From positions 237,708,001 through 237,772,000 of the forward strand of contig OZ024741.1 in NCBI GenBank assembly GCA_964016885.1: a stretch of DNA of 64,000 nucleotides. The letters run 5' to 3'. The notes below the pieces were generated by a model that saw only the letters and a program-made list of their open reading frames with translations, was not told where the DNA came from and ran no database searches. Positions 1 to 58,480 of the stretch are shown piece after piece. This stretch comes from Eledone cirrhosa. Lineage: Eukaryota. Numbering within the stretch: position 1 is the stretch's first letter; each line of letters opens with the position of its first letter. A program made the position numbers and the translations under genes.

Positions 1-589
1 ATTCCCCAAAAAGCCATGTCGTTGTGAAGTGAACTCCTTCATATACATATAGTAAATACATTTGTTATATTAAATCAACAACATATCTCCTCATTACTAC
101 CAGCTGCAATATATAATGGATCCTCTGTCAGTTTTGACAATGAGCATTCAGTGTTGCTGGGTATTCGACTGATAATGTACTTTTAATGTAATTCTGAAGC
201 TGAATCAGTGTGATATAATGTTTGATGAGGCCAGACTTTTGACCTACATGTACAATCCATCTGACTGGCTTCCATACAGTTTCCCTTTATTTAGTTTGAC
301 TCACAAGGCCTCAGTCAATTCAAGATGCACAGTGAGATCAAACCTAGGACTTCATGATTGCCAAGCAAACTCCTTAATTACATGGCCCTGCCTGTGTCCA
401 CAATATTCATCTATACACATATGTTGCATACATCTGTATAGAAACATATTCATATTGCTACATTTTTATTTTTACACCTATCTTGGAAACAGGTGTAATA
501 GTATTATTTTAGGTAGGACTCAGAGGTAGGTGTAATAATAAAAATTTACATTAAAAATATGCGTAATCTATTTCTATTTTTCTGTGCAG

Positions 590-1275
590 GTGAGCGACCA
601 TATACCTGTTTCACATGCAACAAATCATTTTCACAGAGGAGCCATCTGAACAACCACCATCGTACGCACACAGGAGAAAAAATCTACAGCTGTGACACAT
701 GTCATAAATCCTTTGCCCAGAAGGCACATTTGACCATTCACCAAAGAACTCATTCTGGAGAGAAGCCGTTCATTTGTACAGTTTGTGGCAAAGGGTTTCC
801 TCAGAAGGTGCACATGATAAAACACGAGCGAAGCCATAGTAGTGAGGACTTACAGCGAGCATCATTCCAGCAGTCAAACAATACAACTAACCCCCAGTGT
901 CAGCACTCATCAATCATGTCTGCTTGTTCTTCGTCTAACTGCATGCTTCCTTGCCAGGCACCGTGCATGAGCTCACCATCTGTGGCGATTTGTCAGTGTC
1001 AGTGTTCACAGCTGTCCAATCAATCAATGTCCTCAAATCTATCGATGAATCCGGCTACCAGCCACGGTATGTGTCAGTGCGGCCCTCCGGAGAATGTGTC
1101 GTCTCGATCGCAGAAAAACACTTGCATGAACTCGAACATGGGTGGCAATATGTGTTCAGAACAAATACTGGATGACTGTCAGATGTGTACGAGAATGTAC
1201 TCCAAATGGAACACTAATGTCACTAACTGCTGTAATGGGAAGCAAATGAAGAACATGGACCATTCTCAGACTTAA
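590..1275 (+). CDS. Terminal coding exon of a C2H2 zinc-finger gene (3 fingers plus a Cys/Met/Ser/Gln-rich tail)
   Basis: Acceptor tttttctgtgcag|GTGAG at 589/590 falls inside a GERPY linker. Three CxxC-x12-HxxxH fingers with TGEK/SGEKP linkers follow. Stop TAA at 1273-1275. Upstream exons lie outside the window. Confidence 0.9.
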
Positions 1276-5409: not shown

Positions 5410-6930
5410 GCTAGAGGTCTCAGTTCTGTGTCATCACCTTTGAGAGGTGCAATTGGGCAAGATCAGCTTTTATCACCTCATCCCAGGTCTTCTTGGGTCT
5501 CCCCATTCCAAGGTTTCCATTGACCTTTAGTGCTCTGCACCTTTTTATGCAGTTGTCATCCTTCATACGCATCACATGTCCATACCAATGTAATCTCCTG
5601 CATACAGTATTTGATTCCTCTTATGCTTAGTCTCTCTCTCAATTCGTTCAGGCTTTGCCATTCACGTATATTACTATAACACATCCATTGGAGCATGCAA
5701 GCTTCGTTTCTTTCTAATCTACACAAGCTTTTTGCACACAACACCCAGGTCTCACTACCATGTAACATTGCTGTTCGTATGCATGCATCATAGAGTCTGC
5801 CTTTCATTTTGAGGGAAAAGCCTTTTACAGCTAGCAGTGGTAGTAGCTCCCTGAACTTCTTCCATCTCGTTCTTACTCTGGTTACTGTACTTTCAGAACA
5901 CCTACCTCTGCTACTAATTTGGTCACCTAGGTAGCAGAAGCAGTCAACTGTTTCTACAGAGCTCTCCCAGAATTTAGTAGTGCTTGTATCCTGTGGCCAT
6001 TTGCTGCTTACTGCCCTGGTGCAACTGCTACATGTAAAGACTACATTCTTAACTAAACTACCTGAGATCTCAGTACATCTCTTGTGTACTCATAGTTTGC
6101 ATTTGGGGCAGAGGATGGAATTTCTATCTACATCTTTCCTACATACTGAGCAAGGCCATTTCCCTGAGGGGATCTGGGTTCTGTTTTCTTGTCTACTTAG
6201 TCTTTGTCAGGTTGACTTTGAGACCCCTTCTTTCTAGTCCCTGCTTCCATGTTTGGAATTTCTTTTCTAGTTTCACCATAGATTCAGCTATAAGTGTAAG
6301 ATCATCTGCGTACAGAAGTTCCCATGGGCATCTGGTCTTAAACGCCTGCAATTTGATAATAAACAGGAGAGGGCTAAGAACAGAGCCCTGGTGGACACCA
6401 ACCTATATGCTAAATTCTTCGCTATAGTCTTTGTAAACCATACTTTGCTGACTGCTCCCCTATACATGGCTTGTACAGTCTTCACAAGCCATTCATCTAC
6501 TCCTAGTTTTCTAAGAGCCCACCAGATTATAGCACGGGTCACTCTGTCGAAAGCTTTTTCCAGATCGACACATGCTTGGTAAAGCAGCTTACTTTTAGCT
6601 AGGTACTTTTCCTGTAACTGCCTCACAAGAAAAAGAGCATCAGTGGTGCTTTTGCCTGGCATAAACACAAACTGCATCTCATCTGGATTTACCCAGTCCC
6701 TAATCAGCTGTGCTATAGCTCTTTCCGTTACTTTCATGATATGGTCCATCAGCTTTATGCCTCTATAGTTTCCTCCGTCTAGTGTGTCTCCTTTACCCTT
6801 GTAGCAGTTGACAATGATGCTGCTGCACTAATCCTTTATTAGTCTTACTTGGTTAACAATACATGTGGTTATGGTGTGACCTACTGACCCAGATGCTTTC
6901 AGCATCTTGGCAGCTATATCCGATGGACTG
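5410..6930 (-). mobile_element. RTE-clade LINE, 5'-truncated, frameshifted RT
   Basis: ORF fragments VDLEKAFDRV and KGRLYDACIRTAMLHGSETW. Same family as 43423-45660. Confidence 0.93.
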
Positions 6931-14186: not shown

Positions 14187-15474
14187 TATTTATACCAGTG
14201 TTTACCAGCCAATGCCATCTTTTACTTAAATGACCCCAATGCGAATAACAATTGAAAGAGAGAAGAATGGATAGCCAATAATGCATACATATGTTTTTAA
14301 CGAAGTACTTGATATTTGTAACTTAGCTCACGGACCATAGTTTGTGGACTGCTAGTTTACGATTTACATGTCCGCTATATCATGTGACAGCACAATGGTT
14401 AGGTGACGATTGCTTTTTTAAGATGGTTTCCAGTTTGATTGAAGATGTAAAAGACCTCTTGCAATAGCAACTTTTCTTTGAATCACCACTTTACAATGGG
14501 TCTACATTGTTAGATTTTGAATAAGAGCATTGCTAAACATATCCTCATGGCAATGTACAATACCCCAGCCCTCCAGCAACAACAGCACAAACAATGCCAC
14601 ATACATAGAAGAGTTGACTTATCACCATCCTCAGTTTTACATCTATTTTTCGATGCTGGCATCCATTGGTGAGACTTTTTTTGAGGTGGAATTCTATTCT
14701 TTCTGAAGCCAACCCTTGTTTTTAAGTAAGATACAGATCTTCCCACATTTAACTGCTGAGCAATGGGATCTCAGTTTACATGGAACATAAACAAATATTA
14801 CTGTCTGTGATATCAAATGTGTCAATGAGAGACAGATTAGGTTTTTCACTCACTAGCAGCAATAGTCCCTCTGACAGGCTACTGTTTGCCAAATTTCACT
14901 CTTAAAGCTTTGGTCAACAAAAGGTCATGGTAAAGGATGCTTGCTCAAGGTTCTGCAGAGTGGGATTGAATCTGTAATTATGTAGTTGCAAAGTGAACTT
15001 CTTAAGAACACACACAGCCTTTTCTGCACTCATTAAATGTGTTGTAGTAATGTTGAGTAGCCAACAGGTCTGGAGATAGCAGTGTAGGTTGATGAAAAAA
15101 TATTCACAATTTTTGCATTATGTAATCCATTGGTCAGTTTAACATCATTCCTTGGCTCCTGGGTGTCTTTTGCAGAGTCATTTCTGTTGCAAACATTTAG
15201 GCCAGACCTCTTGTCTGAAGAGAATTTCTTTCTTTCCTCTTACAGGTCTCAGAGAGTGCCCTTTCCTCTCTCATTAAGGCATGTAAAAAAAAAAAAAAAA
15301 CTGTTGCCATCCTCTATATATATGTATGGATCTATAGCTCTTGATGGCGTCATAGGGGCACAATAGTGACATACTGTCTTGAATATTTTAAACCTGGCGA
15401 AGCCCATCTATATGTTAACAGGAAAAGATATTATAATTTTCTCAAAAGTGTTTTAAATTATTTTCTCAGGAAAG

Positions 15475-17106
15475 ATGTCCCAGCAACTGACAGGGGAACA
15501 GATTATTTCCATATCAAACAAAGTGATGCGCTGTGTCAGAAAATGTAACATAGTCGGTGTGAAGTCCAAACTGGATCCTCTAAAAATGCCACATCGCAAG
15601 CGTATTGCCAGCCGAAAGATCCATGGATTTACTGCATTGTTTATTGCTGTTTCATATAACAACTTGGAACTTGTACAGTATTTGTTGCATGACTGCAATG
15701 TTCCTGTTGATCAACCTGTGATATACAATGATGATGCTCAAGTAACACCATTGTTAGTGGCTGCATCAGAACACTGCAAGAATATGCTTCAGATTCTCCT
15801 TGATTATGGAGCTGATATCAATGCCAAAGACCACTTGGGCAACACTGCTCTGAAAATGTCTGTTAAAGGTGGCAATGTGGATATTGTTCAGTTTCTAATT
15901 CAAAGAGGCTCTGATGTTAATTTACCCGACCATAAAGGAGTTACCCCATTGATGGAGTCTGTGTTTAACATGGAGTTAGTTGAGCTCCTCTCTCAAAGTG
16001 ATGCTAATTTATATGCAACTGATGCAAGCGGTGACACAATTCTGCATTTTGCTGCATGTAAAGGTAATTTAGAAGTGTTTAAATTTCTTCTCCAAAAAGG
16101 TTTCAGTCCTTACACATGCAATCTCCTTGGTGAGAACTGCTTCCAGCTTGCTGCCATTCATTGGCAGTGGAGAACACTCATTTATTTATTGGTATCTTTC
16201 CCTTACCCACGAGATTCTCCACAACAATACTTTGACACTGTTACAACACAGGTATTTGTCAAAGCTCTTGAGGAAGCTGAACACCATAATGATATATTTG
16301 AATTTCCTGCACTGATGGTAACTGAAAAAATATTAGGTGCTTGCTCTACATCAATTGAGGCATTAGGTTATGCTGCCTGGTTGCAGTGTGACCTAGGTAA
16401 TGTTTCACTTGCCTGGGACGTTTATTGCCATTTACTTCGAGCCTGTCAGAGAATGAGGTGTGTAGCAGGATTTGATATTGTTACACTTCAACTGGAGGTG
16501 TTTTGGAAAATATACTGCAAAGATCAGCATTATTCAATGCCTTTTGGACAAATTATACATCTAGTACGGCAGATTGTCAATGATATCGTCATCAACTGGG
16601 AATCCCTTCAAAAATGTAATTGTGAAGAAACATCTTTGAAAAGCTCTAACAGGAAGAATGCATGGCAGACACTGTTGCTGTTTGTGGTGAACTTGCTCAA
16701 AATTCTCATTCATTACCAACATAAATGGGATTCATTAAGCTTTCAAAAGTTTTCCTGTTCTATTCTTGATAGATATACCAAGGTTCTTTCTCATACACAA
16801 CAATTAGATGCTGAACAGGAAGGAGTTACTAATGAAGATATGCCTGTAGTTTCTTTACGGCTTCATGGAAAATGGCAACTAATGGACATTACTCTTCAAG
16901 CTTGTCATGAAACACAAAACCAGTTTCTGGGAAATGCTCTCAAAGAATCTTCATACATTGTCTTTGATGCTGCTAAACTCATTCCTGTAAGAGAACCTCT
17001 TCCTCTGCAATGTCTCACTGCCAGAGTGTTAAACAAAGCAGACATTGAATTTCAGAAATACTTGCCAGCACGTTTGACTGACTTTGTTCTCCATCACCTC
17101 TCATAA
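15475..17106 (+). CDS. Fem-1-like ankyrin-repeat protein with C-terminal VHL/SOCS-type box (543 aa, single coding exon)
   Basis: N-terminal ankyrin repeats (FTALFIAV, VTPLLVAA, GNTALKMS, GVTPLMES, GDTILHFAA). The C-terminus LPLQCLTARVL..YLPARLTDFVLHH matches the Fem-1 end motif from memory. An acceptor ttttctcag lies 5 nt before the ATG. Confidence 0.85.
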   Translation: MSQQLTGEQIISISNKVMRCVRKCNIVGVKSKLDPLKMPHRKRIASRKIHGFTALFIAVSYNNLELVQYLLHDCNVPVDQPVIYNDDAQVTPLLVAASEHCKNMLQILLDYGADINAKDHLGNTALKMSVKGGNVDIVQFLIQRGSDVNLPDHKGVTPLMESVFNMELVELLSQSDANLYATDASGDTILHFAACKGNLEVFKFLLQKGFSPYTCNLLGENCFQLAAIHWQWRTLIYLLVSFPYPRDSPQQYFDTVTTQVFVKALEEAEHHNDIFEFPALMVTEKILGACSTSIEALGYAAWLQCDLGNVSLAWDVYCHLLRACQRMRCVAGFDIVTLQLEVFWKIYCKDQHYSMPFGQIIHLVRQIVNDIVINWESLQKCNCEETSLKSSNRKNAWQTLLLFVVNLLKILIHYQHKWDSLSFQKFSCSILDRYTKVLSHTQQLDAEQEGVTNEDMPVVSLRLHGKWQLMDITLQACHETQNQFLGNALKESSYIVFDAAKLIPVREPLPLQCLTARVLNKADIEFQKYLPARLTDFVLHHLS

Positions 17107-19420
17107 TTTCCACCTCCCTCACCTTCATTGGGATGGAGATGGTCATCGGCAAGAATAAGCTCTCATGCTGGTATATCTATCAGTGTATCTCTCTCCACCA
17201 CTCTTCGAGATAACACATTTGCCATTGTGTCTGCTGAGACCAGGAAGCAATCTTAAGATTTAATTTGAAAATAGCTGACACTTTATGGAATATTTCCAGC
17301 CAGTAACTGTGTATTTACCCTCCTTGTTGGATTTTTTCTGAAGTGTTCAGCTTTTTGCTGTTTTAAATTAATTTATTTTTTCATGTTTGCTGGAATGAGA
17401 TAGTTTTTGTTCTAACCCTTCCTACTGCTAACCATCCAACCATAAAGCTGGTTTTAGACCAGTCAGGGAAATGAGAACAACAGAGAGAGCCAGTAAATGA
17501 TGAGTCCTCAACAGTAGTCAGTTTATCTTAGCACCAGCACTAGGGAGGTTATCATGTCTTTGTTGAAGAATCCTCCTGACCCTTTGTTTAGCGGGCGTTC
17601 TGTGGCTGGTTGTCTTCCTATTACTAACAGATGGTATTGGGTGCATATCATGTAGATCACCGACATTAGGGAGGTTGTCATGACTTTGACACAGCTGAAG
17701 AGTCTTTCCAATTATTTGTTTGGCATGTTCTCTAGTTTGATCACCAACCACTTTACAGTGTGTACTGGGTGCATTTTTCATGTAGAGCAGCATCACTAGA
17801 GAGGTTGTTGTGTTGTTAACGCCACAGTTGACTCATCTGAACCCTGTTGGCATGGTTTCTACAGTAATATAATCTGACACTTTAATGTCATAACCATTGT
17901 GCTTCATTTAATGAGAAGTAATCAGATGAAGAGAAGTCTGGTTAGATGATCTAACTTATGAAATTTTTTTTTGTTATTTCCTCTGTTATTTGACTGTTTG
18001 GATACTTGAACTCTATGAATGGTGGATATTTGTAAAATTTCAAAGTAAAGATATCCATAACTTAAATTTCATGGCATTATGCCGATGAGAGATAAATATG
18101 AAGCAAAGTTTTTGGTTGTGGAAGAGGAATGGTGCCATAAAACCTAGCCTCCAGAGAATTTATCTGTTGTCTTCTCTGTGACGTCACAGGTCACTTCTTG
18201 GTGGCCATGTCAGTAAGAGAATTCCATGGGAAAACATTTCTTTTACTACAAATATATCCCTGGATAAGACACCAGTCTATCACATGACATTCCAAGATAT
18301 TACTTGTGATAGACAACATTAATATTTATATATATGTATATATAATGTCTTTTAGTTTGAGGAAAAGAGGTAGTCCCTTTAAGACTGGTGATGTTTAGCT
18401 GGAACACTAGTTGGCTGATCCATGTAGGTAAAATTGGGCAATATCAAGTGGGGAAATAGTGTTGTATGTGGCCCTCATGTGGAGCTGGTGATTTGACATG
18501 TAGCTTTGGCCTCTCTGTAACAGTAATAGTTACACAGTCTGAAGTCTATTGCAGAAGCATTTGTATATTATGTAAGAGGTGGCTGGTTGTTTTGCTACAT
18601 TGTTTTGTATGCTTACACCATGCAGTGTGTTAATCCAGATTGATGTTACATATGTTATTGTTTGTTGAACTGGCTGTTTCAGTTGCCTGCGATCTCTTAA
18701 CAATACCTTGGTATTTATTCTTTTAAAATCTCTTGGCCTGGATATTAAGTTTCCTATAACAAACATAATATGATACATAAACAATGTATGGTTTTCTTAG
18801 ATCAGTTATGCTTAGGTCAAGAATGTTAACGTAATTCATTTCTTGAGGGTACCTCATCATTATCATCATCATTGTTGTTTTTACATTGTCTTTTACAAGC
18901 TGGTATGAGGGCTTTTTGTTGGCTTTACAGCCATATGCCTTTCCTGGCACCAACCCTTTTAGTTGTTTCTTATGACATGCAAAGATATGGTGTATCTATT
19001 CTAAACTGGTCACACATGACCAATACTCTTGTGTATATTTATGTATCTTTATGTCAGGGTTCTGGCTTCCTAATATATCCCTGGTGTTGTTTTCACATTC
19101 TGGAGTATGAGGAAAGTTAACACTCATGTATGCACACACAATCATACACATATTGTGTGTTAGCTTTCCTCCTTGACATGCTGAAAAAGCATTTAAATAT
19201 CTTATATTGCTTGCTGCATCCTGTAGTCATCTATCTTATTTGAAAGCATCAGCAGGTCATATATGCTGTCCTACATATATATTCTTTTGTTGCATGTGTT
19301 TTTGCTAAAACAAGGGATGCAACTGAGTGTATCTTTGTCGCTTCTGTCAAAGAAAATACAACCCATGACAAGGGATGTAACTCTGGTTTGACTAAGTATT
19401 AAAAATTATATGGTTAATGA

Positions 19421-19665
19421 ATTAGGATTTGGTTTAAACCTACCTATGAAAAATCCTTGCAGATGCGTTTTTGCTCTTTTGTGGAATAACTGCATTGATA
19501 GACTGGGAAAACATCGAAATTTGGTAAAGTTCATCCTCTGTAATTCTTTATATGTTAGCTAACAGCGATCTCTGGGGTATGGATCCCTAATTTGTTAACA
19601 GTGAGCTGTCTTCCTTTGTTGGCGTGTCAGCCCTGTTTGACCAATGTAGTGTTCCACAGTGGTAG
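19421..19665 (-). mobile_element. Penelope-like element GIY-YIG endonuclease C-terminal fragment (pseudogenised)
   Basis: Manual translation across stops and frameshifts gives EHYIGQTGLTRQQRKTAHC*QIRDPY..IAVS*HI..PNFDVFPVYQC..FIGRFKPN. Confidence 0.8.
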
Positions 19666-19869
19666 TGTGCTATATGCCCTGGGCCCAGGCTTTCATTGGT
19701 ATGTGTACAGTTTTGGTTCTTTGGTTTGGTACCTAGGTCTTTTGCTCTCCATGGAGGTTAAGTTCCTACTTTTATTTCCCCTACTGCTAGAGAGGTTCTA
19801 CTGTCATTACGCTTTATTCTAGCTGCTCTCTGGTTGTTGAAAGGTTCTATATTGTTGCTACTGGTGACT

Positions 19870-20963
19870 GATGAGTGCATGTTTGTCAGTTATAGAATAG
19901 TCAACTTTGCTGATACCCTAGTTCCTTTACATATGCATAGGTTCTACATCACAAGCAGGGGCTTTTCTGTATGTTGGTGTGTATTTTATTTTCTTCTTAT
20001 ATCCTGCTTTAGTTTCTTGGGCGTGGTAAAAGTTGCAGCTGCTTATTTCGTTCATGGCTATGTCTTCCCAGTCTTTGGGTCTGGCTCTTTTTCTATCTTC
20101 TCCAAAGCTGAGATCTCTCATAGTTTCCATAGTTCCATACTTTGGACCTGTTGCTGTGTTGAGGCATCCATTCCATGTCATGTCTTTCCCTGCACCAGCC
20201 ATAGTGTTGAGACCAGCTCCGAAATTCAAGATGCTGCCGTGTACTGTTAGGTTGTCGTAGAATTCAACGTTAGTGGTATTGTTAGACGTGAATTGTTGTG
20301 CCATTTATGTGTGAATGAATCACCTTGTCTTAATTTATTTTAGTTCTCATCGCTCTCCAGTCGTGGAAGCTGTTTATTTCAGTTGTACATGATAAGACGT
20401 CAACGTCTATATTGCACTGTACAGTTTTGTTTACGTATTTTCTCGGGAATGAGTATGAGTAGGAATATTTTGGTAGGAACATTTGTGATGCATCTGTAGG
20501 TTGTACGAATTGGAATCCTCTGTTTGGTATGAAGTCTATTTTCTTTAGGTTTCTGTAACCAATATAGTTACTAGGGTCTATGAAGATTTCGAAATATGGT
20601 TGTGGATTAGGGACAAATACCTCCTTGTGTTTTGATGTCCATTCTCCACATGTTATGTGATCTATTGTTACACCTATATCTGTGATACGATATGATGTGT
20701 TCATTAGAGACAATTCGAAGTCTGTGGGTTTTATCCAGCTTGTTAAGAGGTATGGTAGTATGTAGTGCTCTGCATCTACTATTCCATAACAATAGTGTCC
20801 TATGTTGTGGTATCCTTGTTCTGTTTTGAGATATTTGGTAAATTTTACTTTAGCGGTATTCATGTTACATGATTTGATCATTTTCGGAAAGTTAGTTGGA
20901 ATATCGTCGCATCTGGTTTTTGGTTGGAGGGGGAGGCTTCCTCCTGTGTTTGTTCCTTGCCAT
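19870..20963 (-). pseudogene. Endogenous parvovirus-like capsid (VP) gene, frameshifted
   Basis: Basic N-terminus MARNKHRRKPPP (ATG 20963) joins ORF 20881-20330 by one frameshift in an A run. Motifs YILPYLLTSWIKP, YRITDIGVTIDHI and PQPYFEIFID recall hamaparvovirus VP. Continues in ORF 20304-19927. Confidence 0.65.
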
Positions 20964-21194
20964 CTGTTATTTTAGAAAAATAAGTGCCATATTTAAAATA
21001 TATCGTTGAGGTTTTGTGTTTCATAGATATTCATATCACATGCGTAGGACAGAGACGCATGTTTGTTTATATATATATATATTTATAATTCAAGGGTAAG
21101 AGATTGTCTAGACAAGTATCCACATTATGTGTGTTTGTATGATGATATAAGAAGAATTGTTATAAGATCGATTCTCACCATCCATATATATGTA

Positions 21195-21571
21195 CATAGA
21201 TACATTGCCAAAGAAATATCGGATAACAAGTTAAAGAACTTACATAGATGGTAAAATTTCAATTATTTTCAAATCAGATAACATGTAAAAAAAACTTACT
21301 TAAAAATGGTAAAATGCTGAGATTTCAATATTCTATACAGCTGTTTCATGAGTAAAAGAGAAATGGATGGTACCATAAGATGAAACACTAATCGTCGGTA
21401 GAATTTTCATTTTACTAAGCGCATTATATATGACTAGTCGCCATAGATTCAAAAGAGGAATTGAATGCACATGGTGAGGAACATAATATGAGGATACAAA
21501 CAGGCCAATGGGAATGCTTGAAATAGCAGTGGGTTTGGTCTATATAGAAGCAACTCTACTAAAATTTACTG
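21195..21571 (-). mobile_element. Second copy of the hammerhead-bearing pLTR family
   Basis: Co-linear with 4385-4712. Confidence 0.75.
21330..21404 (-). ncRNA. Hammerhead motif with mutated core (CCGACGA)
   Basis: Minus strand reads ATTCTA-CCGACGA-...-GAAAC-AGCT-GTA|TAGAAT, with perfect stems I and III. Confidence 0.6.
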
Positions 21572-21989
21572 TTAGGAGCAGAAGTATATGTATTAAAATA
21601 TTGATTAATATATAAAGTTATTAATCATATTGTCTGTCAAAAGTATAGGTTAACCCAAGTGCTACAGATTGTCACTATTAGAACCTAAAGTCAGCTCTAC
21701 TAATATAAAATTTAAGAATTTTTTTAAATTTGATATTAGTAACAATATATATTGTTATATTTGGGGATGGTCATGTTGCCAATAGAAAGAAACACATGCA
21801 CCATATAATTTTCACTTTATTTTTATTGTTCATTATTCATTTGTTTATCAAAGTTCTTTCGTTACACAATCTGTGTCTTCTTCCATGCTTATCTGTTTTG
21901 TGCCTCCTTAAACTTCTACTCCATCTTCTCTTTTGTTTGTTTTTAGGGGCGTTTTTTTGTGTTTCATGCCTGTGTGTGTGTGGGTTTGT

Positions 21990-22760
21990 ATTGTTTGCTG
22001 TTTGTGTCTTTATTCTGTCTTCAGTCATTAAGCTGCGGGTTGTAACTATTCCACTCATGTTTTCTGTTCAGGCTAGGGTTATCTTTTATTATGTGAGTGG
22101 ACTCCATAATTTGTGTTGCATCAGTTCTCTGTGTGGATAGGATCTTTATTTCTATGTTATCTATTGAGCCCTTGTGTTCTAGTTTAGCATGTTGGTATAG
22201 CACTGATGAGCTTTTCTCCTCCTTAACTTCTCACCAGTGTTCTTTTAATCTCTCTGTGTGTCGTTATCTTGTTTCTGCTTTGTCTCTGTACATCTTATCC
22301 TGTAGACTAAATTTCTAGTTTTACAGTTTATCTGTGGGCTTATTTTACAGACTATACAGTTTCTATCAGTACAAAGGTTTTTCCTAAAGGGGTATGTTCT
22401 ACTGATCTGGGATTTTAAGGCAGCTCCTGGTTTTTCTACTATTTTAATAAGGTTCATTTTTTCTAAAGCTCTTCTAAAACGGTATGCCAGTTCGTCTATA
22501 GAGGTAGTATCGACGAACATAACACTTGTATGTATTTTTGGTTGTCATACCATGAGTTAACCTTCCCTATCGTTTTCTTTGTCTTTTCTATGCTATTCCA
22601 TGATTTGCTCCTGTATTGTGGGCAAATCCAATTCATATCATTTTCCACAATGGTTTTGAATTTAGCTATGGCTCCTTTGTACACCCTGATCCTGTCTTTT
22701 GGCTATAACCAGAGAACTGCATGTGTTTCTTTAACTCTGTTGGATCGCCCGTCAGGACAT
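21990..22760 (-). mobile_element. Penelope-like element, RT thumb/linker plus GIY-YIG fragment (Naiad-like pattern)
   Basis: PQYRSKSW..WY..MFVDTT..IKIVEKPG..YPFRKNLCTDRNCIVC..CKTRNLVYRIRC..QHAKLEHKG..MESTHIIKDNPSLNRKHEW across frameshifts. Confidence 0.85.
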
Positions 22761-25429
22761 ATTTCTCATCGCCCTTACCAGGTCTGCTATCAAGATATTG
22801 AACTTATCACTATTTGAGATAGCTGACATCTTTAAGATGTCAAGTGGAGGATTTTGACATCTTTGTCTAAACTGAGCTTAAAGCAAATCTGTGTGTGTGA
22901 ACGCACAGGCAGTTTATACGTTTGCATATATCTATGCACCCATGTGGGTAATTAGGTATGTGTTAATGTTTGTTAGCAAGCATGCTACTCTAAAATCATA
23001 TAATCTGGGACACTCCTCTAGCTTCTGTCATCACCAGACTAGCTATTGTCATCACCACATCTAGTTCCTATCATCTACCAAGAAACTTATATAAATAAGA
23101 AGTATGTCTTACTGAGTTGATATTTTCTATAACTTATTTTAAAGTTCTTCATGAGGATATTCCTCACTGAATTAACAAAATGTTTTTGTTTGTGCACCAC
23201 TGGGTCATGGGTATCAATCACAAAATTAATTTGAGGTTTGCTAATTATATACTTTCTACAGTACCCATGGAACTCCATGTTTGATATCTCAGCCAAGTAC
23301 TTCCTATTAAAGTATTTTGCATTTTCCTCTAAATTGTACCCATGAATATTTTCCTCCTATCTTCTTTTTAACTGGACCCACGATAACATTGTTTCCCAGT
23401 TATATTTTCCTATCATCCTCTCAACAATATTGTTCTCATGGATATTTTTTAAACTAAAGTAATGGGTGAAAACATGACTGTGTGGCTAAGAAGTTTGCTT
23501 TGTGACTACATAGTTTTGGATTTGATCACATTGCACAACACCCTGGGTAGGTGTCTTCTACCATAGCCACAGGTCACTAAAAAATTTGTAAGGGGAATTT
23601 TGGTCGATGGAAACTGGAAGCGCATCAGAAAAAAGTTTTTGTTTTTGGTTTGTAGACTTAATGTCACCTGGTTTAACACCACCACTTGGCTCTTGGGTGC
23701 ATTTAACGGAGCCCACTCTATTGTAGGTATCCAGGCAAAATATTTGGTCTGTGGATAATCTTTTTCTTCTTCCTATATTTACAGAGGCTCTGAAAAGGGT
23801 TGTAAATACTGTCCTTTCTCTGAATAAGCCATTAAAAAAAGTGTTTGCTTTCCAAGTACCCTACTGTGTGATGTATATGGAAGGTCACTGTGTAATCATC
23901 CCTGTTTGCGATTGATCTGTTGACCACATCTATATAAACAGCATATAATCTAGCAGAGATGATTTCTCAATAAGAAAAAAAGCAAGAAAACCCTTAAGAA
24001 TTGATTGCTTAAACATTATAGCCTTCTCCCTCCACTTTTACCTTACTGCTACTTGGAATAAGTGGGACATTGAACAGAATTGCTTATGAGCTTATGTTAT
24101 GCCAATCATGCAGCATCAGCAATCGCAGTTTCTTTATTATTATCAGCTGTCTGTTGTATGAGATTCTAAATCTTGTTTTATTCAATCCCCCCATAGAGCA
24201 TTGGGGTGAATCTACTTGTCGTTTTTGTAGCAATTTGAGTACCAAAAGGCAAGGTCGTTAGCCTAGTGTGCCATCCTTTGTCCTTTCTCTATATGGGCTG
24301 GATACCAATGAGGGATAATTCTTAACCCTAGATAAGAACCCATTCCAGGTACTCTCAGATGTAGCCTGCTGAGCTTGTGTAAGGTAGAGTTGACACGCCA
24401 TGTTGTAATGACTGAGGTTACTGCCTCTTACCTTAAGATTACACAATGTCTAATTATTGCATTGAATCCCTTCGTCATTGATAATGTTAAGTTTGCTAGT
24501 CTACCAAAATGGCAAAACTTATTTGTCAATGTGTGACTCTCATGAACCTTCTAAGGTTAATTTTGATATCACATAATCAGTGGTGGGTATACTATAAAAT
24601 TGATGATTATGCTTCAGGGTCCCTCCAGATAATGAAGATGTCCCCATAACAATTCAAGCATCAAATATACCTCTGCCAAAAAAATCATATAACCCATATC
24701 TTTGTTGTAATAACTTTTTTCTCACAAATAATTGTTATTATAATATATATGTTTTCTACCATCCAACTTTATTATTATGTGTTGCAATGTTTTCTAAAAT
24801 ACAGTTCTATTATATTGGTATACTATATTTTCTGCATCACAGGTATTATTTTGTTAACATTGTATGGAAATTTATAGGCGAAATTTGAACACTTGTTTAT
24901 TTTTTTACATTACAGCCAGTGATATATTTTTTAACTATTCTATATGAATAGACAACTTCCTTATCAAATAAAAATGAAGCTGTTCATAAATTTCTTCTTT
25001 TCACCACTGCATAAATCGAACTTATGACAATATTTTTCTTTCAATAAAAATTGTTATGAAATTTTCTTTTCAATATCAATTTGTTTCTCATAAATTTATT
25101 TTCATTTCATCAATTGCTGTTGCTTTATTATTCATACCCCAGTCATTAGGAGCACTTGATATTTTCGATTTAACCCTATTTGTTATTGTATTTCTAATGA
25201 TACACTACTTATGTGTATCAATTAATTCTGATAGTTTGAAGAATTTAATGAGATAAATAAATTTCTCATTAATAAAGCTGATGTTTGAAACCTTACTTAA
25301 ATAAAATAATGATGGAATGTTTTGATATAAGTCTGAACATTTCAAAATTAGTAATTGTGAATCATAAATCTATGGTGCTTTCAGGAGGGTTGGTTTCAAA
25401 GCAGTTAAAATCTGCCAGTGATCATATAT

Positions 25430-37730: not shown

Positions 37731-38159
37731 ATTTTGAGCTAAATAAAGAGAGCCTCTATGTGTTTACTTGACTAGAAATAGCAACCACATTTATCACAAA
37801 TCACATTACCATCACCCTTTTAAGAAAGCAGGTCACTTTAGGTAACAAAACCTTAGATATATTATGTCTGAAAAACAATTAGGAGATGTTCAAAGCTGGA
37901 ACAATTTTGATTATACATCTGATTATCAACAACAACAGCTAGCTTGTAATGTTAGAGTTCAAACTAGGAATAACAGCATGACATTGTTCTAACAAAGTCA
38001 CCATTATGTTTTATATTCAGCTTTCATATTACCCCATATTCTATATTTGACTGAGATTTGTAGCTATGAGTAAAGATAAGCCTATTGCCATCTTATAGTA
38101 GCAACTAGTTTGGATTAAACTATTAGATATTGTTAACTTAGATAAGTGTTTCAACTCAC

Positions 38160-40460
38160 CTGATGAGTAATTTCTGTTGTTTCAAGAAGAACAGAAGAGT
38201 TTAATCCATCCAATATTGGTTGTCCACATGTTGCCCCACTTGGATGCACATTTGGATCAGGTGTACTTTGGTCTGATGGACTGATTTTGCTGTGGCAATG
38301 CTGATTGTTTCGGTTGTTGCATTTAGTAATGCACAATGTTAGAGGAATTGCAAATGATACAGATACCACAATTGCCACCAGGATTATGATAATTAATAAA
38401 TTTAAATCTAATTCCACTCCTGTTTGCTGTTCAGCAGATGTCATTGTTTTTGTGCTTTTGTTGTTAACAGTTACTGTCAGAGACAAATTAGTGAGAGATG
38501 AGAGAACAGGGGTGCCACTGTCTGTCACAGATATCTGTAGTTCATGAACACCAGAGTCATTGATGTTAATATGCCGGGCAAATAGTAGTAAACCAGAGTA
38601 ATGGTTGATGTCAAACAAGCTTCGGTTATTTCCTGTGATAATACTGTATGTGAGGAAAGCATTTTGTCCCCAATCAATGTCTTTTGCCTTCAAAACTGTG
38701 ATGTTATTTTGACTGGAATTGTAGAAAATATCAAGCGTAAAAGGATTGTCTGAAGGGAATATAAAATAAGGGGCATTATCATTTTCATCTGTAACTATAA
38801 CATTGACACTTGCTGTGCTATTGAGTGGTGGAGAGCCTTTATCAGTAGCCACAACATCAAAATTATAACTATTTTGTTGTTCACGGTCCAATGGTTCTTT
38901 AGTTGATATCATTCCATCTTTGGAGATTTGGAATGGTGTATGAGATTTGTCGGTGCAACACAAATGGAAGTGTAACTGCCCTCCTGGCCCCAGGTCTGCA
39001 TCTGTTGCGCTGAGAATACCTATTGTAGTGTGAGCTTTGTTGTTTTCTTTTGTCCAGAACTGGTAGAATTCCTTGGAAAACTTTGGGTGTTCATCATTAA
39101 TATCTGTTACAATGACTGAGAACTTATCTTTGGTCTGTAAAGGTGGGGTTCCCTTGTCATAGCAGGTGACCGTGACACCGTAGTAGTCGTCCAACTCTCT
39201 ATCAACTTTATTTTTGATAATAACTTTAAATTTCTTGGGACCTAATTCTACAAGCTGGAATTTATTATGTTTCATCTGACATACAACCTCTCCATTCTGA
39301 CCAACATCTTCATCTTCCACTTTAATGTATGCAATGAAACTACCAATTTGAATTTGTTCAGATATTATGGCAGTTTTACCTGATGTACTTGACACAAAGA
39401 TGAAATATATTTTGGGTGATTTATTCTTTTGATTTAAAATGTTTACAAGAACTCCTGTCATTGAGCTGAGAGGTGGTTTACCACCATCAATTGCTTCAAT
39501 ATACAACCAATGAGTCAATTTCTCCCCTGAACTAAATTTCCTTCGTAAGAACAATTCACCCGTCTTTTGGTTCAGTTCAAAATGGGATTTTAAATTTTCT
39601 GGTGTATTGATGCTGAAATGGTAGCTGATGTCACCATTTTTCTCCATATCTTCATCACTTGCAGATAACAGCAAGATTGGAGAAGGTTGATAATTTTCAT
39701 TGATAACAGTAATATTGTAGACATTGTGTGTAAATACAGGGGGATTATCATTGACATCGACAACTTTAACTTCAACGTCCAGAACATTTTCTTTAGTTGG
39801 AATTCCCTTGTCTTTAGCAATTACCTGCATCTTGTATACATCTTTTGTTTCTCTGTCAAGATTCTCTTCAAGATAAATCCAAAGTTCATCTGTTTCATCG
39901 AGACGTTTGGAAACAGTTAGTGAAAAGGGATCACCAGGGTTGACCTTTAGTTGATATTCTATCTCTGAGTTCAATTCTCCAATATCTTTATCAAAAGCGC
40001 TTGGAATCCTTCTTGTTCTCCCCATTTTGTCATCCTCTAAAAACTCTATTTTCACTTTACTCTTAGGAAACTGAGGGCAGTGATCATTAAGGTCAAGCAC
40101 AAATATTTTAATTTCAAGTATTTTGATAAAAGTCTCAGCTTTTTCAATAGCAATGTCTACAGTTCTAGAACATTCCCTGTTCTGAACACACATTGATTCT
40201 GCATCTAGCATTTGAGTAGTGTACAGCTTACCTGTTTTTTCTGATACACGGAAGAAAGGCAAACCATCTGTGAAACCTTGGCCCACCTGGTTGAATCGGA
40301 TGAGATCTTTCTCTAGAGCATTGATGCTATTCAGTAGCTTAGAGTCATCTGCAATGTCACCAAGAAATGTACCTGGCTTTTTGCCTTCTTCCACATAATA
40401 TATTAAGTCTGCACCAGAACAACATTGAAGGGTTATAAAAACTACTATCAATGTGAACAT
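38160..40460 (-). CDS. Protocadherin exon 1 (signal peptide, 6 cadherin repeats, TM, juxtamembrane)
   Basis: DLNDHCPQF, LDRE, DVNDNPPVF, DINDEHPKF and DENDNAPYF motifs. TM is LLIIIILVAIVVSVSFAIPLTLC. Donor CAG|GTGAGT at 38160/38159. Confidence 0.96.
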
Positions 40461-40967
40461 GACACATTGATGCTGAATACAGCGAACAGTTTAGATAGAG
40501 TGGTTTCATCCATAAAAGTCCATGGAGAATGCATCAGGCTATTCATCTACAGAGATAATACTGTGTGTACAGAGTAAGATAGTTCAGGAAGAGAGCAGAC
40601 AGCCTATATATTTATAGGAATTTCATTCTGTAAGGACCAGAGAAATTATATCAGACAGTTTCACTATTCAATAATCAGAAAAAATATATAAATAGAAAAT
40701 ACAACATATAATTTATACATTCATAGACGTGTGTGTGTATTCTTCCAGTGCACTGTGCCTATGTAGAAGCATCACCTTCAAGGATTTTAGTAAATTATAT
40801 TAACCCCAATATTCAGTCTGTTATTTATCAAATTGTTGTGGTTTATCCAAGATACATCCTTTAAAAAAGTAACTGCCCTCTATGGACTTAAATACCACAC
40901 ATTATTTACCCAAACACAGGATAAATTGTAAGTATATATATATTATATATGTGTTGGCATTAAACAT

Positions 40968-46319: not shown

Positions 46320-49300
46320 TACAGTGATGTAGTTATAGTGGTGTAGGGGTTGGGGTTATAGTGGTGTAGGGGTTGTGGTTACAGTGGTGTAGTGGTTGTA
46401 GTTACAGTGGTGTAGTTATAGTGGTGTAGTGGTTGTTGCTACAGTGGTGTAGTGGTTGTGGTTATAGTGGTGTAGGGGTTGTGGTTACAGTGGTGTAGTG
46501 GTTGTAGTTACAGTGGTGTAGGGATTATGGTTACAGTGGTGTAGTAGTTGTGATTACAGTGGTATAGTGGTTGTGGTTACAGTGGTGTAGTGGTTGTGAT
46601 TATAGTGGTGTAGCGGTTGTGGTTACAGTGATGTAGTGGTTATAGTGGTGTAGTGGTTGTGGTTACAGTTGTGTAGGGATTGGGGTTATAGTGGTGTAGA
46701 GGTTGTGGTTATAGTGGTGTAGTGGTTGTGGTTCTAGTTACAGTGGTGTAGTGGTTGTGGTTCTAGTTACAGTGGTGTAGTGGTTGTGGTTCTAGTTATA
46801 GTGGTGTAGAGGTTGTGGTTCTAGTTATAGTGGTGTAGTGGTTGTGGTTCTAGTTACAGTGGTGTAGTGGTTGTGGTTCTAGTTATAGTGGAGTAGTGGT
46901 TGTGGTTCTAGTTATAGTGGTGTAGAGGTTGTGGTTCTAGTTATAGTGGTGTAGTGGTTGTGGTTCTAGTTACAGTGGTGTAGTGGTTGTGGTTCTAGTT
47001 ATAGTGGTGTAGTGGTTGTGGTTCTAGTTACAGTGGTGTAGTGGTTGTGGTTCTAGTTATAGTGGTGTAGAGGTTGTGGTTCTAGTTATAGTGGTGTAGT
47101 GGTTGTGGTTCTAGTTACAGTGGTGTAGTGGTTGTGGTTCTAGTTATAGTGGAGTAGTGGTTGTGGTTCTAGTTATAGTGGAGTAGTGGTTGTGGTTCTA
47201 GTTACAGTGGTGTAGTGGTTGTGGTTCTAGTTATAGTGGTGTAGTGGTTGTGGTTCTAGTTATAGTGGTGTAGAGGTTGTGGTTCTAGTTATAGTGGTGT
47301 AGTGGTTGTGGTTCTAGTTATAGTGGTGTAGTGGTTGTGGTTCTAGTTACAGTGGTGTAGAGGTTGTGGTTCTAGTTATAGTGGAGTAGTGGTTGTGGTT
47401 CTAGTTATAGTGGTGTAGAGGTTGTGGTTCTAGTTATAGTGGTGTAGTGGTTGTGGTTCTAGTTATAGTGGTGTAGTGGTTGTGGTTCTAGTTATAGCGG
47501 TGTAGTGGTTGTGGTTCTAGTTATAGTGGTGTAGAGGTTGTGGTTCTAGTTATAGTGGTGTAGTGGTTGTGGTTCTAGTTACAGTGGTGTAGTGGTTGTG
47601 GTTCTAGTTATAGTGGTGTAGTGGTTGTGGTTCTAGTTATAGTGGTGTAGAGGTTGTGGTTCTAGTTATAGTGGTGTAGAGGTTGTGGTTCTAGTTATAG
47701 TGGTGTAGTGGTTGTGGTTCTAGTTATAGTGGTTTAGAGGTTGTGGTTCTAGTTATAGTGGTGTAGAGGTTGTGGTTCTAGTTATAGTGGTGTAGTGGTT
47801 GTGGTTCTAGTTATAGTGGTGTAGTGGTTGTGGTTCTAGTTACAGTGGTGTAGAGGTTGTGGTTCTAGTTACAGTGGTGTAGTGGTTGTGGTTTCTAGTT
47901 ATAGTGGTGTAGTGGTTGTGGTTCTAGTTACAGTGGTGTAGTGGTTGTGGTTCTAGTTATAGTGGTGTAGTGGTTGTGGTTCTAGTTATAGTGGTGTAGT
48001 GGTTGTGGTTCTAGTTATAGTGGTGTAGTGGTTGTGGTTCTAGTTACAGTGGTGTAGAGGTTGTGGTTCTAGTTATAGTGGTGTAGTGGTTGTGGTTTCT
48101 AGTTATAGTGGTGTAGAGGTTGTGGTTCTAGTTATAGTGGAGTAGTGGTTGTGGTTCTAGTTACAGTGGTGTAGTGGTTGTGGTTCTAGTTATAGTGGTG
48201 TAGTGGTTGTGGTTCTAGTTATAGTGGTGTAGTGGTTGTGGTTCTAGTTATAGTGGAGTAGTGGTTGTGGTTTCTAGTTATAGTGGTGTAGTGGTTGTGG
48301 TTCTAGTTATAGTGGAGTAGTGGTTGTGGTTTCTAGTTATAGTGGTGTAGAGGTTGTGGTTCTAGTTATAGTGGTGTAGTGGTTGTGGTTCTAGTTATAG
48401 TGGTGTAGTGGTTGTGGTTCTAGTTACAGTGGTGTAGTGGTTGTGGTTCTAGTTATAGTGGTGTAGAGGTTGTGGTTCTAGTTACAGTGGTGTAGTGGTT
48501 GTGGTTCTAGTTATAGTGGTGTAGAGGTTGTGGTTCTAGTTATAGTGGTGTAGTGGTTGTGGTTCTAGTTATAGTAGTGTAGAGGTTGTGGTTCTAGTTA
48601 TAGTGGTGTAGTGGTTGTGGTTCTAGTTACAGTGGTGTAGTGGTTGTGGTTCTAGTTATAGTGGTGTAGTGGTTGTGGTTCTAGTTATAGTGGTGTAGTG
48701 GTTGTGGTTCTAGTTATAGTGGTGTAGTGGTTGTGGTTCTAGTTATAGTGGTGTAGAGGTTGTGGTTCTAGTTACAGTGGTGTAGTGGTTGTGGTTCTAG
48801 TTACAGTGGTGTAGAGGTTGTGGTTCTAGTTACAGTGGTGTAGTGGTTGTGGTTCTAGTTATAGTGGTGTAGAGGTTGTGGTTCTAGTTATAGTGGTGTA
48901 GTGGTTGTGGTTCTAGTTACAGTGGTGTAGTGGTTGTGGTTCTAGTTACAGTGGTGTAGTGGTTGTGGTTCTAGTTACAGTGGTGTAGTGGTTGTGGTTC
49001 TAGTTACAGTGGTGTAGTGATTGTGGTTCTAGTTACAGTGGTGTAGAGGTTGTGGTTCTAGTTATAGTGGTGTAGTGGTTGTGGTTCTAGTTACAGTGGT
49101 GTAGTGGTTGTGGTTCTAGTTACAGTGGTGTAGTGGTTGTGGTTCTAGTTACAGTGGTGTAATGGTTGTGGTTCTAGTTACAGTGGTGTACTGGTTGTGG
49201 TTCTAGTTACAGTGGTGTAGTGGTTGTGGTTCTAGTTATAGTGGTGTAGTGGTTGTGGTTCTAGTTACAGTGGTGTACTGGTTGTGGTTCTAGTTACAGT

Positions 49301-50640
49301 GGTGTAGTGATTGTGGTTCTAGCTACAGTGGTGTACTGGTTGTGGTTCTAGTTACAGTGGTGTAGTGGTTGTGGTTCTAGTTATAGTGGTGTAGTGGTTG
49401 TGGTTCTAGTTACAGTGGGGTAGTGGTTGTGGTTCTAGTTACAGTGGTGTAGTGGTTGTGGTTCTAGTTATAGTGGTGTAGTGGTTGTGGTTCTAGTTAT
49501 AGTGGTGTAGTGGTTGTGGTTCTAGTTATAGTGGTGTAGAGGTTGTGGTTCTAGTTACAGTGGTGTAGTGGTTGTGGTTCTAGTTATAGTGGTGTAGAGG
49601 TTGTGGTTCTAGTTATAGTGGTGTAGTGGTTGTGGTTCTAGTTATAGTGGTGTAGAGGTTGTGGTTCTAGTTATAGTGGTGTAGTGGTTGTGGTTCTAGT
49701 TACAGTGGTGTAGAGGTTGTGGTTCTAGTTACAGTGGTGTAGTGGTTGTGGTTCTAGTTATAGTGGTGTAGAGGTTGTGGTTCTAGTTATAGTGGTGTAG
49801 TGGTTGTGGTTCTAGTTACAGTGGTGTAGTGGTTGTGGTTTCTAGTTATAGTGGTGTAGAGGTTGTGGTTCTAGTTACAGTGGTGTAGTGGTTGTGGTTC
49901 TAGTTATAGTGGTGTAGAGGTTGTGGTTCTAGTTATAGTGGTGTAGTGATTGTGGTTCTAGTTATAGTGGTGTAGAGGTTGTGGTTCTAGTTATAGTGGA
50001 GTAGTGGTTGTGGTTCTAGTTATAGTGGTGTAGTGGTTGTGGTTCTAGTTACAGTGGTGTAGTGGTTGTGGTTCTAGTTATAGTGGTGTAGAGGTTGTGG
50101 TTCTAGTTATAGTGGAGTAGTGGTTGTGGTTCTAGTTATAGTGGTGTAGAGGTTGTGGTTCTAGTTATAGTGGTGTAGAGGTTGTGGTTCTAGTTACAGT
50201 GGTGTAGTGGTTGTGGTTCTAGTTATAGTGGTGTAGAGGTTGTGGTTCTAGTTATAGTGGTGTAGTGGTTGTGGTTCTAGTTATAGTGGAGTAGTGGTTG
50301 TGGTTCTAGTTATAGTGGTGTAGTGGTTGTGGTTCTAGTTATAGTGGAGTAGTGGTTGTGGTTCTAGTTATAGTGGAGTAGTGGTTGTGGTTCTAGTTAT
50401 AGTGGTGTAGTGGTTGTGGTTCTAGTTATAGTGGAGTAGTGGTTGTGGTTCTAGTTATAGTGGAGTAGTGGTTGTGGTTCTAGTTATAGTGGTGTAGTGG
50501 TTGTGGTTCTAGTTACAGTGGTGTAGTGGTTGTGGTTCTAGTTATAGTGGTGTAGAGGTTGTGGTTCTAGTTACAGTGGTGTAGAGGTTGTGGTTCTAGT
50601 TACAGTGGTGTAGTGGTTGTGGTTCTAGTTACAGTGGTGT
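46320..50640. repeat. Minisatellite: about 23-bp units (46320-46730), then about 135 copies of a 29-bp unit
   Basis: Unit gttayagtggtgtagwggttgtg expands to gttayagtggtgtagwggttgtggttcta. Confidence 0.98.
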
Positions 50641-56949: not shown

Positions 56950-58480
56950 TATTTAGGAACATACAAAAGTGCATCAATACCAAAATACATTGTCAAAGGT
57001 GTTCTTATTTGATGATCCATCAATACTGAAGGGTTTTCCTTTCTTCCAGCACATAGAATTAACTGTTAAGTGAGTAGAAACATAAATAAATATGCACCAA
57101 AGCATCCAAATAACTTAGAAAAAGCTTTAACTCCCATTTTTAGTCTGTATCATTTTTTCAACCAGATCACTAGGTGCTAGTTAGTATGGTGGCATCTTAA
57201 AAGGTTTGTAACCTATCTTCTTAATGTACTCTAACAACATTTCATCATAGAATTCTGTAGCATAATCAGAAACCAACATATGTGGAACCAAATTCCTTGC
57301 AAAAATAGTTCTTAAAGCACTGATCACAGTTTTAACAGCCATTAACCCTGATGACTTCTGGTAAACCGGGAAATGTATAATCAAGTATCAGTAACAAATC
57401 AACAGCAGGAACATATAACCATGATTCATTAGATATAACCATGACTTTCGTGCAATTGTACAAGTATGTTCAGTAACTTTTGGTATGGGTTTAAGCTGGC
57501 CACATTTAGGGCAATTTCATGCATAATTTTCAACATCATTACTATATCCAGGTCACCATGCTTTTAGTTGCATTCTATTTCAAGTTGCTACAGTTCCACT
57601 CATGAATGTCTTTAATGAACATTTGATACAGCACTGCAGGAACAACAATAATGTCTCTGTTGCAAATAATTTCCTTATAAATTCTTATACCAATAAAATT
57701 TTCTTTTTATACATTTTGCATGGAACATTGAAATATCGTGCATGCTGTTTTTATAATGAATTATAAACATTTTCAATGCAGTAATGCAAGATGAGTACTT
57801 ACTGTTGATATTTTTTAGCTTTACCAGAAATTTTGATTTAATGGTAATCTTCAACCAAATCTATTTTTGCAAAATATTTCATACCTGTCAGCTTGTGTAA
57901 TAAGGTCTCAGTATTCAGGGTAGGTTCACACTTAGAACATATATTGGGATTTATTCAATCCTGTAGTCTGCACAAATACATAAATTGCTATTAGACTAAT
58001 GGGGAAGCCCACTTACGTCTTCCTAACTCAACCTTTTTATTTAACCATTATTCAGCATTTCTTCTTATTTCCCCACAAGGGAATAAAATGTATAGGAAAT
58101 TTTCTAGATTCCTAATATGAAGGTTTAATGTTATTTAGTAATTTTATTTCAACTTTATAACCTTTTAAGCACTTGTTATAAAAACTATGTATGATGAATA
58201 AGTGACGTACCATTACATCTCAAAACATCCATTCCAATAAAACCATGTTTCTTATAACATTCAATGGTAATTATGATAATTATAACATGTCTAGTTTTTG
58301 TTTTTGTATTAAAACAGTTACAAACTTTCCCATTAGTTTGATCAGTGAACCATCAAACTGTTTCTAGTTTGGGAGATACTAGCTTTATTCAGAAGTACTC
58401 AGAGATGATAGTAACACCACTGCCAATGTCCAATGGTATCTACATTTCAATATTATTCAACTCAATGGAGGTCAAAGAGC
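56950..58480 (-). mobile_element. Decayed Gypsy LTR-retrotransposon pol (protease, RT start, integrase)
   Basis: PLDIGSGVTIISE (protease), WASPLV and GMKYFAKIDL (RT), and VPHMLVSDYATEF..PPY (integrase), in Gypsy order. Confidence 0.8.

Follow-up and report, generated by a model that had tools for sequence, protein, structure and literature searches.

In the textbook layout of a parvovirus genome, production of NS1 comes first, and the protein then activates a capsid promoter lying downstream. The capsid chain of the penstylhamaparvovirus IHHNV comprises ∼300 residues and lacks PLA2, and endogenous forms of IHHNV/PstDV are reportedly known. The available excerpts of a 2024 review assign all parvoviruses a layout with NS at the left end and VP at the right (PMC11357303), and those of a 2026 paper on divergent lineages describe extra upstream ORFs, with no VP-before-NS1 genome among them (PMC13426907). 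For cephalopods, the accessible portion of Francois et al. (2016) and its supplement lists NS fragments from Octopus bimaculoides, one of them genomic and beside a transposable element, a VP transcript fragment from O. vulgaris, and NS ESTs from Sepia and Euprymna, and has mollusc parvovirus sequences branching outside the known genera (PMC5013282). Cephalopod parvovirus fossils as such are not new, fragments having been known already in 2016; within the same portion of that study, these fragments are 0.5–0.8 kb long and come without genome layout, termini, capsid fold, or gene order (PMC5013282). The lineage described here provides a layout and a likely host for them. Exact-phrase searches of open-access full text returned no capsid-first parvovirus and no layout for a cephalopod EVE.

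The window, the whole 64-kb stretch of DNA that was analyzed, carries a truncated and twice-frameshifted capsid gene fragment that lies among host repeats and is likely inert. It is highly probable that this fragment belongs to a likely cephalopod-infecting lineage whose other insertions are ordered hairpin, PLA2-capsid, NS1, hairpin on one strand, an order that is taken for the window copy from its relatives. The fragment by itself is ordinary, and its value lies in its membership of that lineage.

The fossil of the parvovirus capsid (VP) gene spans 20014–20971 on the minus strand and consists of three frame pieces separated by two frameshifts, at about 20337–20347 and about 20268–20277; it shares 43% identity with unnamed public capsid proteins of full length (E 1e-54). 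The three motifs that an earlier note had placed in the order of parvoviral jelly-roll strands, YILPYLLTSWIKP, YRITDIGVTIDHI, and PQPYFEIFID, all fall within a single 213-aa stop-free minus-strand frame (20330–20971), which aligned with the full-length public proteins P0001–P0003 at 42–43% identity over about 213 aa (E 8e-57 to 2e-53). The capsid fossil proposed in that note is real and parvoviral, with its central motifs in one frame, but it is smaller than claimed, and both of the cited ends had been misread. RNKHRRKP, put forward as a basic N terminus, is off-frame and is not the capsid N terminus because the same bases read RWQGTNTGG, a Gly-rich stretch, in the capsid frame. Similarly, GTRVSAKLTIL, taken for a late strand near 19900, is not viral because capsid homology ends at ∼20014, and 19670–20013 is a dispersed host repeat; the DNA match to the related locus L049 ends at the same point. 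The two frameshifts replace the single one that had been placed near 19900, and the supposed ∼350-aa protein is reduced to a viral part of ∼315 codons, which contain no stops.

The first VP piece (20348..20971, minus strand) covers the Gly-rich N-terminal region and the first jelly-roll strands, runs for 208 codons without a stop, and is 43% identical to residues 126–339 of P0002 (214 aa, E 3e-54) and 37% identical to the capsid of the related locus L034 (E 9e-44). It contains a helix-strand-loop-strand unit that aligned weakly with the AAV capsid (E 0.002 and 0.25) and that we take to be alphaA/betaD/DE loop/betaE, the strands being named by analogy. The second piece (20277..20336, minus strand) sits between the frameshifts and is 68% identical over 22 aa to residues 345–366 of P0002. 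The third (20014..20274, minus strand) corresponds to a large loop region, matches P0002 up to residue 456, and stops short of the last two barrel strands and the C terminus; the last two long strands of a structural model of the L034 capsid (residues 373–377 and 388–407) are absent from the fossil. At its 5′ limit, the fossil starts at the position equivalent to residue 126 of P0002, beyond the PLA2 region. A homology search of the 64-kb window found neither PLA2 nor NS1, in agreement with what had been reported from inspection of the letters, and the window copy has no hairpin and no obvious start or promoter. Weak matches elsewhere in the window (57355–57558 and 59515–59778, E 0.06–0.9) were treated as chance. 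Used by itself as a query, the window piece matched neither a Pfam capsid family nor a PDB sequence, and no homologue was found among 23 candidates of 117–373 aa.

The fossil lies on a 416-Mb contig of a 3.0-Gb assembly, with dispersed host repeats on both sides, and this junction to host DNA, together with the decay evident in its two frameshifts, identifies it as an endogenous element. To the left is a repeat at 19282..19654 with many matches (69–81% identity); to the right are a repeat at 21068..21727, also with many matches (75–87% identity), and a second at 21745..22826 with ∼76% identity to L076–L078. Directly adjoining the viral 3′ end, in the same sense and with zero spacer, is a 5′-truncated fragment of a reverse-transcriptase (RT) retroelement (19670..20013, minus strand) with 72–84% DNA matches elsewhere in the genome. 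Other copies of this segment lie after an RT core/thumb (L008 and L003) and before a GIY-YIG-like motif recognized by eye (L005), and a chain of similarity leads from L003 to L024 (E 2e-20) and on to an RT in L034 (E 1e-4) that matched Pfam RVT_1. Pfam searches gave no name for the retroelement pieces L003, L005, L008, and L024; the element is, we presume, likely Penelope-like.

One short-read contig runs ungapped through the fossil and its two flanks with a single difference, and another covers 19300–21040 with no difference; both spanning runs come from a single study that is possibly the source of the assembly. Because the breaks in the fossil are present in these short-read contigs, they are not long-read errors. 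In one of two runs from another study, short-read depth was ∼1 at 20272–20514. The finding of no stops in 315 codons places post-insertion substitution at roughly <7% per site, a bound that is a simple Poisson estimate on pieces whose ends were chosen by homology. Synonymous sites were saturated between the window copy and the four copies tested (pS 0.66–0.79), and its best DNA matches reached only 65–68% identity; it is therefore an independent integration rather than a duplicate. Most likely, the window copy is inert and goes back to an independent germline integration, which would be younger than about 7% substitution per site. Template switching by the retroelement RT may have captured the viral fragment, a tentative proposal that fits the seamless same-sense junction to a 5′-truncated element; alternatively, DNA-level insertion could have been followed by a deletion or by retroelement insertion.

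A tblastn search of its own genome with the window frame gave 23 matches, the window copy included, among 33 candidates. Dozens of related insertions are present in the genome, and they form two lineages, A (that of the window copy) and B; 38 stretches of 9–10 kb were fetched, comprising a subset of 23 VP-A and 61 NS-A search matches plus some neighbors. Amino acid identity of the relatives to the window copy ranged from 37 to 61%. In a tree of 22 single-frame rows, the window copy grouped with L046, L049, and L051 (99/95), adjoining P0001–P0003 (89/92), to which the window piece is 41–43% identical. The nearest relative is L049, in which the VP-then-NS junction is internally deleted. An unbroken 622-aa relative (L016/L034) matched four unnamed public proteins, three of them 608–621 aa long, and the contigs that encode P0001 and P0002 are 4.4 kb each, the same size as the endogenous unit. 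Scans of IMG/VR and JGI yielded no usable locus, with one confirmed stretch missed in one scan. Remote full-length capsid relatives (P0143/P0165, P0145, P0125, and P0131; E 1e-5 to 1e-7) emerged from a profile search; some of them are on large contigs and are possibly endogenous in other animals.

Both lineages encode a PLA2-containing VP1 together with an NS1 that bears HUH and Walker A motifs. The NS proteins of the two are only about 21–25% identical. The VP1 of the relatives is ∼610 aa long including PLA2, and the PLA2 family PF08398 was detected in L016/L034 (E 6e-10), in L014/L035, and in the VP-B of L036. Parvo_NS1 (PF01057) was recognized in related loci with E values of 1e-16 and 5e-18, and NS of the lineage matched AAV Rep with an E value of 3e-7. 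All 11 NS-A matches among public proteins (P0005–P0015) are unnamed, and the lineage would supply a host assignment for such unnamed metagenomic relatives. Judged by eye, the helicase pieces from Euprymna and Sepia in the accessible portion of the 2016 study look like NS-A, and the pieces from O. bimaculoides look like NS-B (PMC5013282). In L058 (C27:17609473–17610102), an NS-B helicase match lies inside a 1217-aa open frame, much longer than NS1 and possibly a fusion. The independent insertions are of different ages and could be used for dating parvoviruses in molluscs.

Different insertions of both lineages occur in tandem on one strand at C12:8.97–9.09 Mb (L036, L037, L043, L045, and L059), C25:7.43–7.46 Mb (L044 and L071), and C2:345.36–345.39 Mb (L035 and L063). 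In the virus-collecting piRNA clusters of mosquitoes, insertions also lie on one strand. This likeness at several loci, and the 208 stop-free codons of the first window piece, would suit a window copy kept by selection, whether as a host-used protein or as a small-RNA template. We regard that as improbable given that the copy is truncated at both ends, carries two frameshifts, shows no clear start or promoter, and is located away from the clusters, and that an absence of stops is equally expected of a young insertion; an inert copy remains our reading.

Because just a portion of the barrel is represented in the window piece, the unbroken capsid core of L034 (37% identical) was folded in its place. 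A first fold from 10 rows reached a pLDDT of 35, and its top 12 matches were nonetheless parvovirus capsids (Z 6.3–7.3). A second fold used 95 rows drawn from the loci and from part of the 150 profile-search matches listed, and it reached a pLDDT of 65.6 and a pTM of 0.63. Foldseek matched this model to AAV and bocavirus capsids (best E 3e-10) and to unclassified Parvoviridae (E 3e-15). When the model was compared with 48,161 chains using VIA, ranks 1–20 were all parvovirus capsids (Z 16.4–10.2), and rank 21 fell to a Z of 7.1. The jelly roll that had been read from the order of the motifs is thus borne out by the predicted fold of the L034 relative, not by the window piece itself, and on that model the capsid of the lineage is a single jelly-roll protein of parvoviral type. 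A trypsin-like viral protease suggested by the ESM Atlas for the window piece, with recognition below the reliability mark, was overruled by the homology and fold evidence.

The best structural matches were the capsids of AAV, bocavirus, PARV4, B19, and Syngnathus chapparvovirus (Z 15–16.4). The lineage has in common with Parvovirinae a PLA2 in VP1u and monosense genes; it differs in having only 10–14% capsid sequence identity to them, an invertebrate host, and VP before NS1. A close likeness to the small shrimp penstylhamaparvovirus capsid, the comparison made in the earlier note, was not supported. The IHHNV/PstDV capsid shares the jelly roll (Z 13.7, rmsd 4.0 over 237 residues), and both viruses have marine invertebrate hosts, but it ranked only 14th of the 20 parvovirus chains, and the relatives of the window copy have a PLA2-VP1 of ∼610 aa. 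None of the 95 family members matched the IHHNV_capsid Pfam family, and the relatives do not have the small capsid lacking PLA2 that is typical of a penstylhamaparvovirus. The related loci do contain what marks Parvoviridae: a HUH/SF3 NS1, a jelly-roll capsid, hairpins, and, as in most genera, PLA2 in VP1.

Gene order was assessed in the 38 loci, which had been chosen through the VP-A and NS-A searches and which contain 36 VP/NS neighbor pairs no more than 2.5 kb apart. VP followed by NS of the same lineage accounts for 22 of these pairs; the remainder comprise 4 same-lineage pairs with NS then VP, 7 mixed-lineage pairs, and 3 on opposite strands. In 12 of the 22, the end of VP is joined to the start of NS on the same strand with gaps of 9–200 bp, a configuration found in both lineages; the gap is 9–75 bp in 11 junctions and 200 bp in the twelfth. 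These junctions are not all independent, since L055, L060, and L062 look like one virus. No junction of an NS end to a VP start of the same lineage occurs among the 36 pairs, and none of the 4 NS-then-VP pairs reaches the VP start. An end-to-start junction in the canonical layout, with NS left and VP right, was found in these loci for neither lineage, and the lineage appears, from the sequences of its insertions, to reverse the parvovirus gene order.

For the termini, 24 loci and an 11-kb part of the window were scanned for perfect stems. Just upstream of VP, hairpins were found in L034, L041, L042, and L062 (folding z −6.8 to −19.2); downstream of NS, they were found in L036, L042, and L063 (z −14.1, −12.1, and −4.2, respectively); many of the scanned loci, and the scanned part of the window, gave no stems. 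Terminal palindromic hairpins around a unit in the 4–6-kb range are a property of related loci and not of the window copy. In 8 lineage-A loci, a 10-nt left-end motif and then a TATA-like site lie ahead of the VP ATG; further occurrences of the motif, four in the loci and one in the window (45440), are remote from viral homology. In L036, the unit extends over ∼4.4 kb, equal to the P0001 and P0002 contigs. L060 forms a perfect head-to-head dimer whose axis is about 400 bp upstream of VP, and in L055 the sequence folds back on itself about 500 bp downstream of NS. Perfect long inverted duplications of viral sequence are present at L060:1459–4587, L062:665–6026, and L055:1580–3003, and the VP-B genes of these three loci appear nearly identical. 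These fold-back dimers suggest recent integration of replication intermediates and, by analogy, would fit a linear hairpin genome and its rolling-hairpin intermediates. In L034, a 66-bp inverted duplication (5656–5789) stands in place of the normal end of the capsid frame.

The same arrangements might in principle arise from ordinary NS-first parvoviruses if the VP-then-NS junctions came from head-to-tail concatemers, or from circular intermediates lacking termini, at integration. Integrated parvoviruses are established to be often rearranged, several of the loci are scrambled or inverted, and six mixed-lineage neighbors read NS then VP, such as NS-B then VP-A in L036 and L039. The precision of the junctions argues against this origin: the VP stop abuts the NS start, at 9–75 bp in 11 of 12 cases, across two lineages with NS proteins only ∼21–25% identical. 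No hairpin lies between VP and NS, whereas hairpins and fold-back axes lie before VP and after NS. Moreover, a left-end motif lies between NS-B and VP-A in L036, and these genes therefore belong to different viruses. We consider a concatemeric origin unlikely and retain the capsid-first order.

A monosense genome with its capsid gene first is at odds with the textbook layout, and the lineage would have to time its replicase and capsid differently. The virus is envisaged as having a linear genome of ∼4.4 kb that replicates by the rolling-hairpin mechanism. A promoter at the left, with a TATA about 25–35 nt before the VP ATG, would give VP1 and a +1-frame membrane protein. A +1-frame ORF of ∼110–120 aa with one transmembrane stretch overlaps PLA2 in 13 of 14 lineage-A copies and in 0 of 5 lineage-B copies; an example lies over the PLA2 region at L034:3930–4500. 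This lineage-A ORF is placed like B19 X and PARV4 ARF1 as described in excerpts of the source (PMC10891878). In lineage B, splicing across the capsid gene would yield the RNA for NS1, and all six B junctions have a pyrimidine tract and a CAG acceptor-like site within ∼40 nt of the VP stop. For lineage A, we propose more tentatively that NS1 is made from an internal promoter at the 3′ end of VP; a conserved TATA-like site there is confounded with coding and provides a weak lead. AATAAA follows NS in four of the six regions checked and was found near the VP stop in neither of two.

On balance, we moderately favor the view that these viruses form a new subfamily-level branch of Parvoviridae in cephalopods, comprising at least two deep lineages with linear, PLA2-capsid-first genomes, expressing NS1 by splicing or from an internal promoter, responsible for dozens of germline invasions, some in single-strand clusters, and, to judge from the 4.4-kb contigs, still circulating. 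The dozens of copies, the C12, C25, and C2 clusters, the odd gene order, and the lack of a named relative in any sequence search could instead suggest an ssDNA virus from outside the parvoviruses, or a mobile element with hairpin ends, that borrowed parvovirus-like genes and is spreading in the genome. We regard this as very improbable. The copies that were compared diverge strongly, and their synonymous sites are saturated, a pattern to be expected if viruses integrated separately and not from transposition bursts; moreover, the family agrees with Parvoviridae in its NS1, its PLA2, its capsid fold, its hairpins, and its size.

Inspection of the remainder of the window revealed several other features. 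An intronless 549-aa ankyrin-repeat ORF with a helical C-terminal part lies at 15457–17106 on the plus strand (Pfam Ank_2, E 3e-37), and a 779-aa ORF on the minus strand (38151–40490) is presumably protocadherin-like, of the octopus type. A cephalopod host is suggested by this ORF, by the 3.0-Gb size of the assembly, and by the visual resemblance of the NS proteins to the cephalopod fragments already published. A C2H2 zinc-finger exon with a Cys/Met/Ser-rich tail was recognized by eye at 517–1275 (plus strand). A 29-bp minisatellite of 139 copies (94% matches), with a strong G/T strand skew, occupies 46600–50640.
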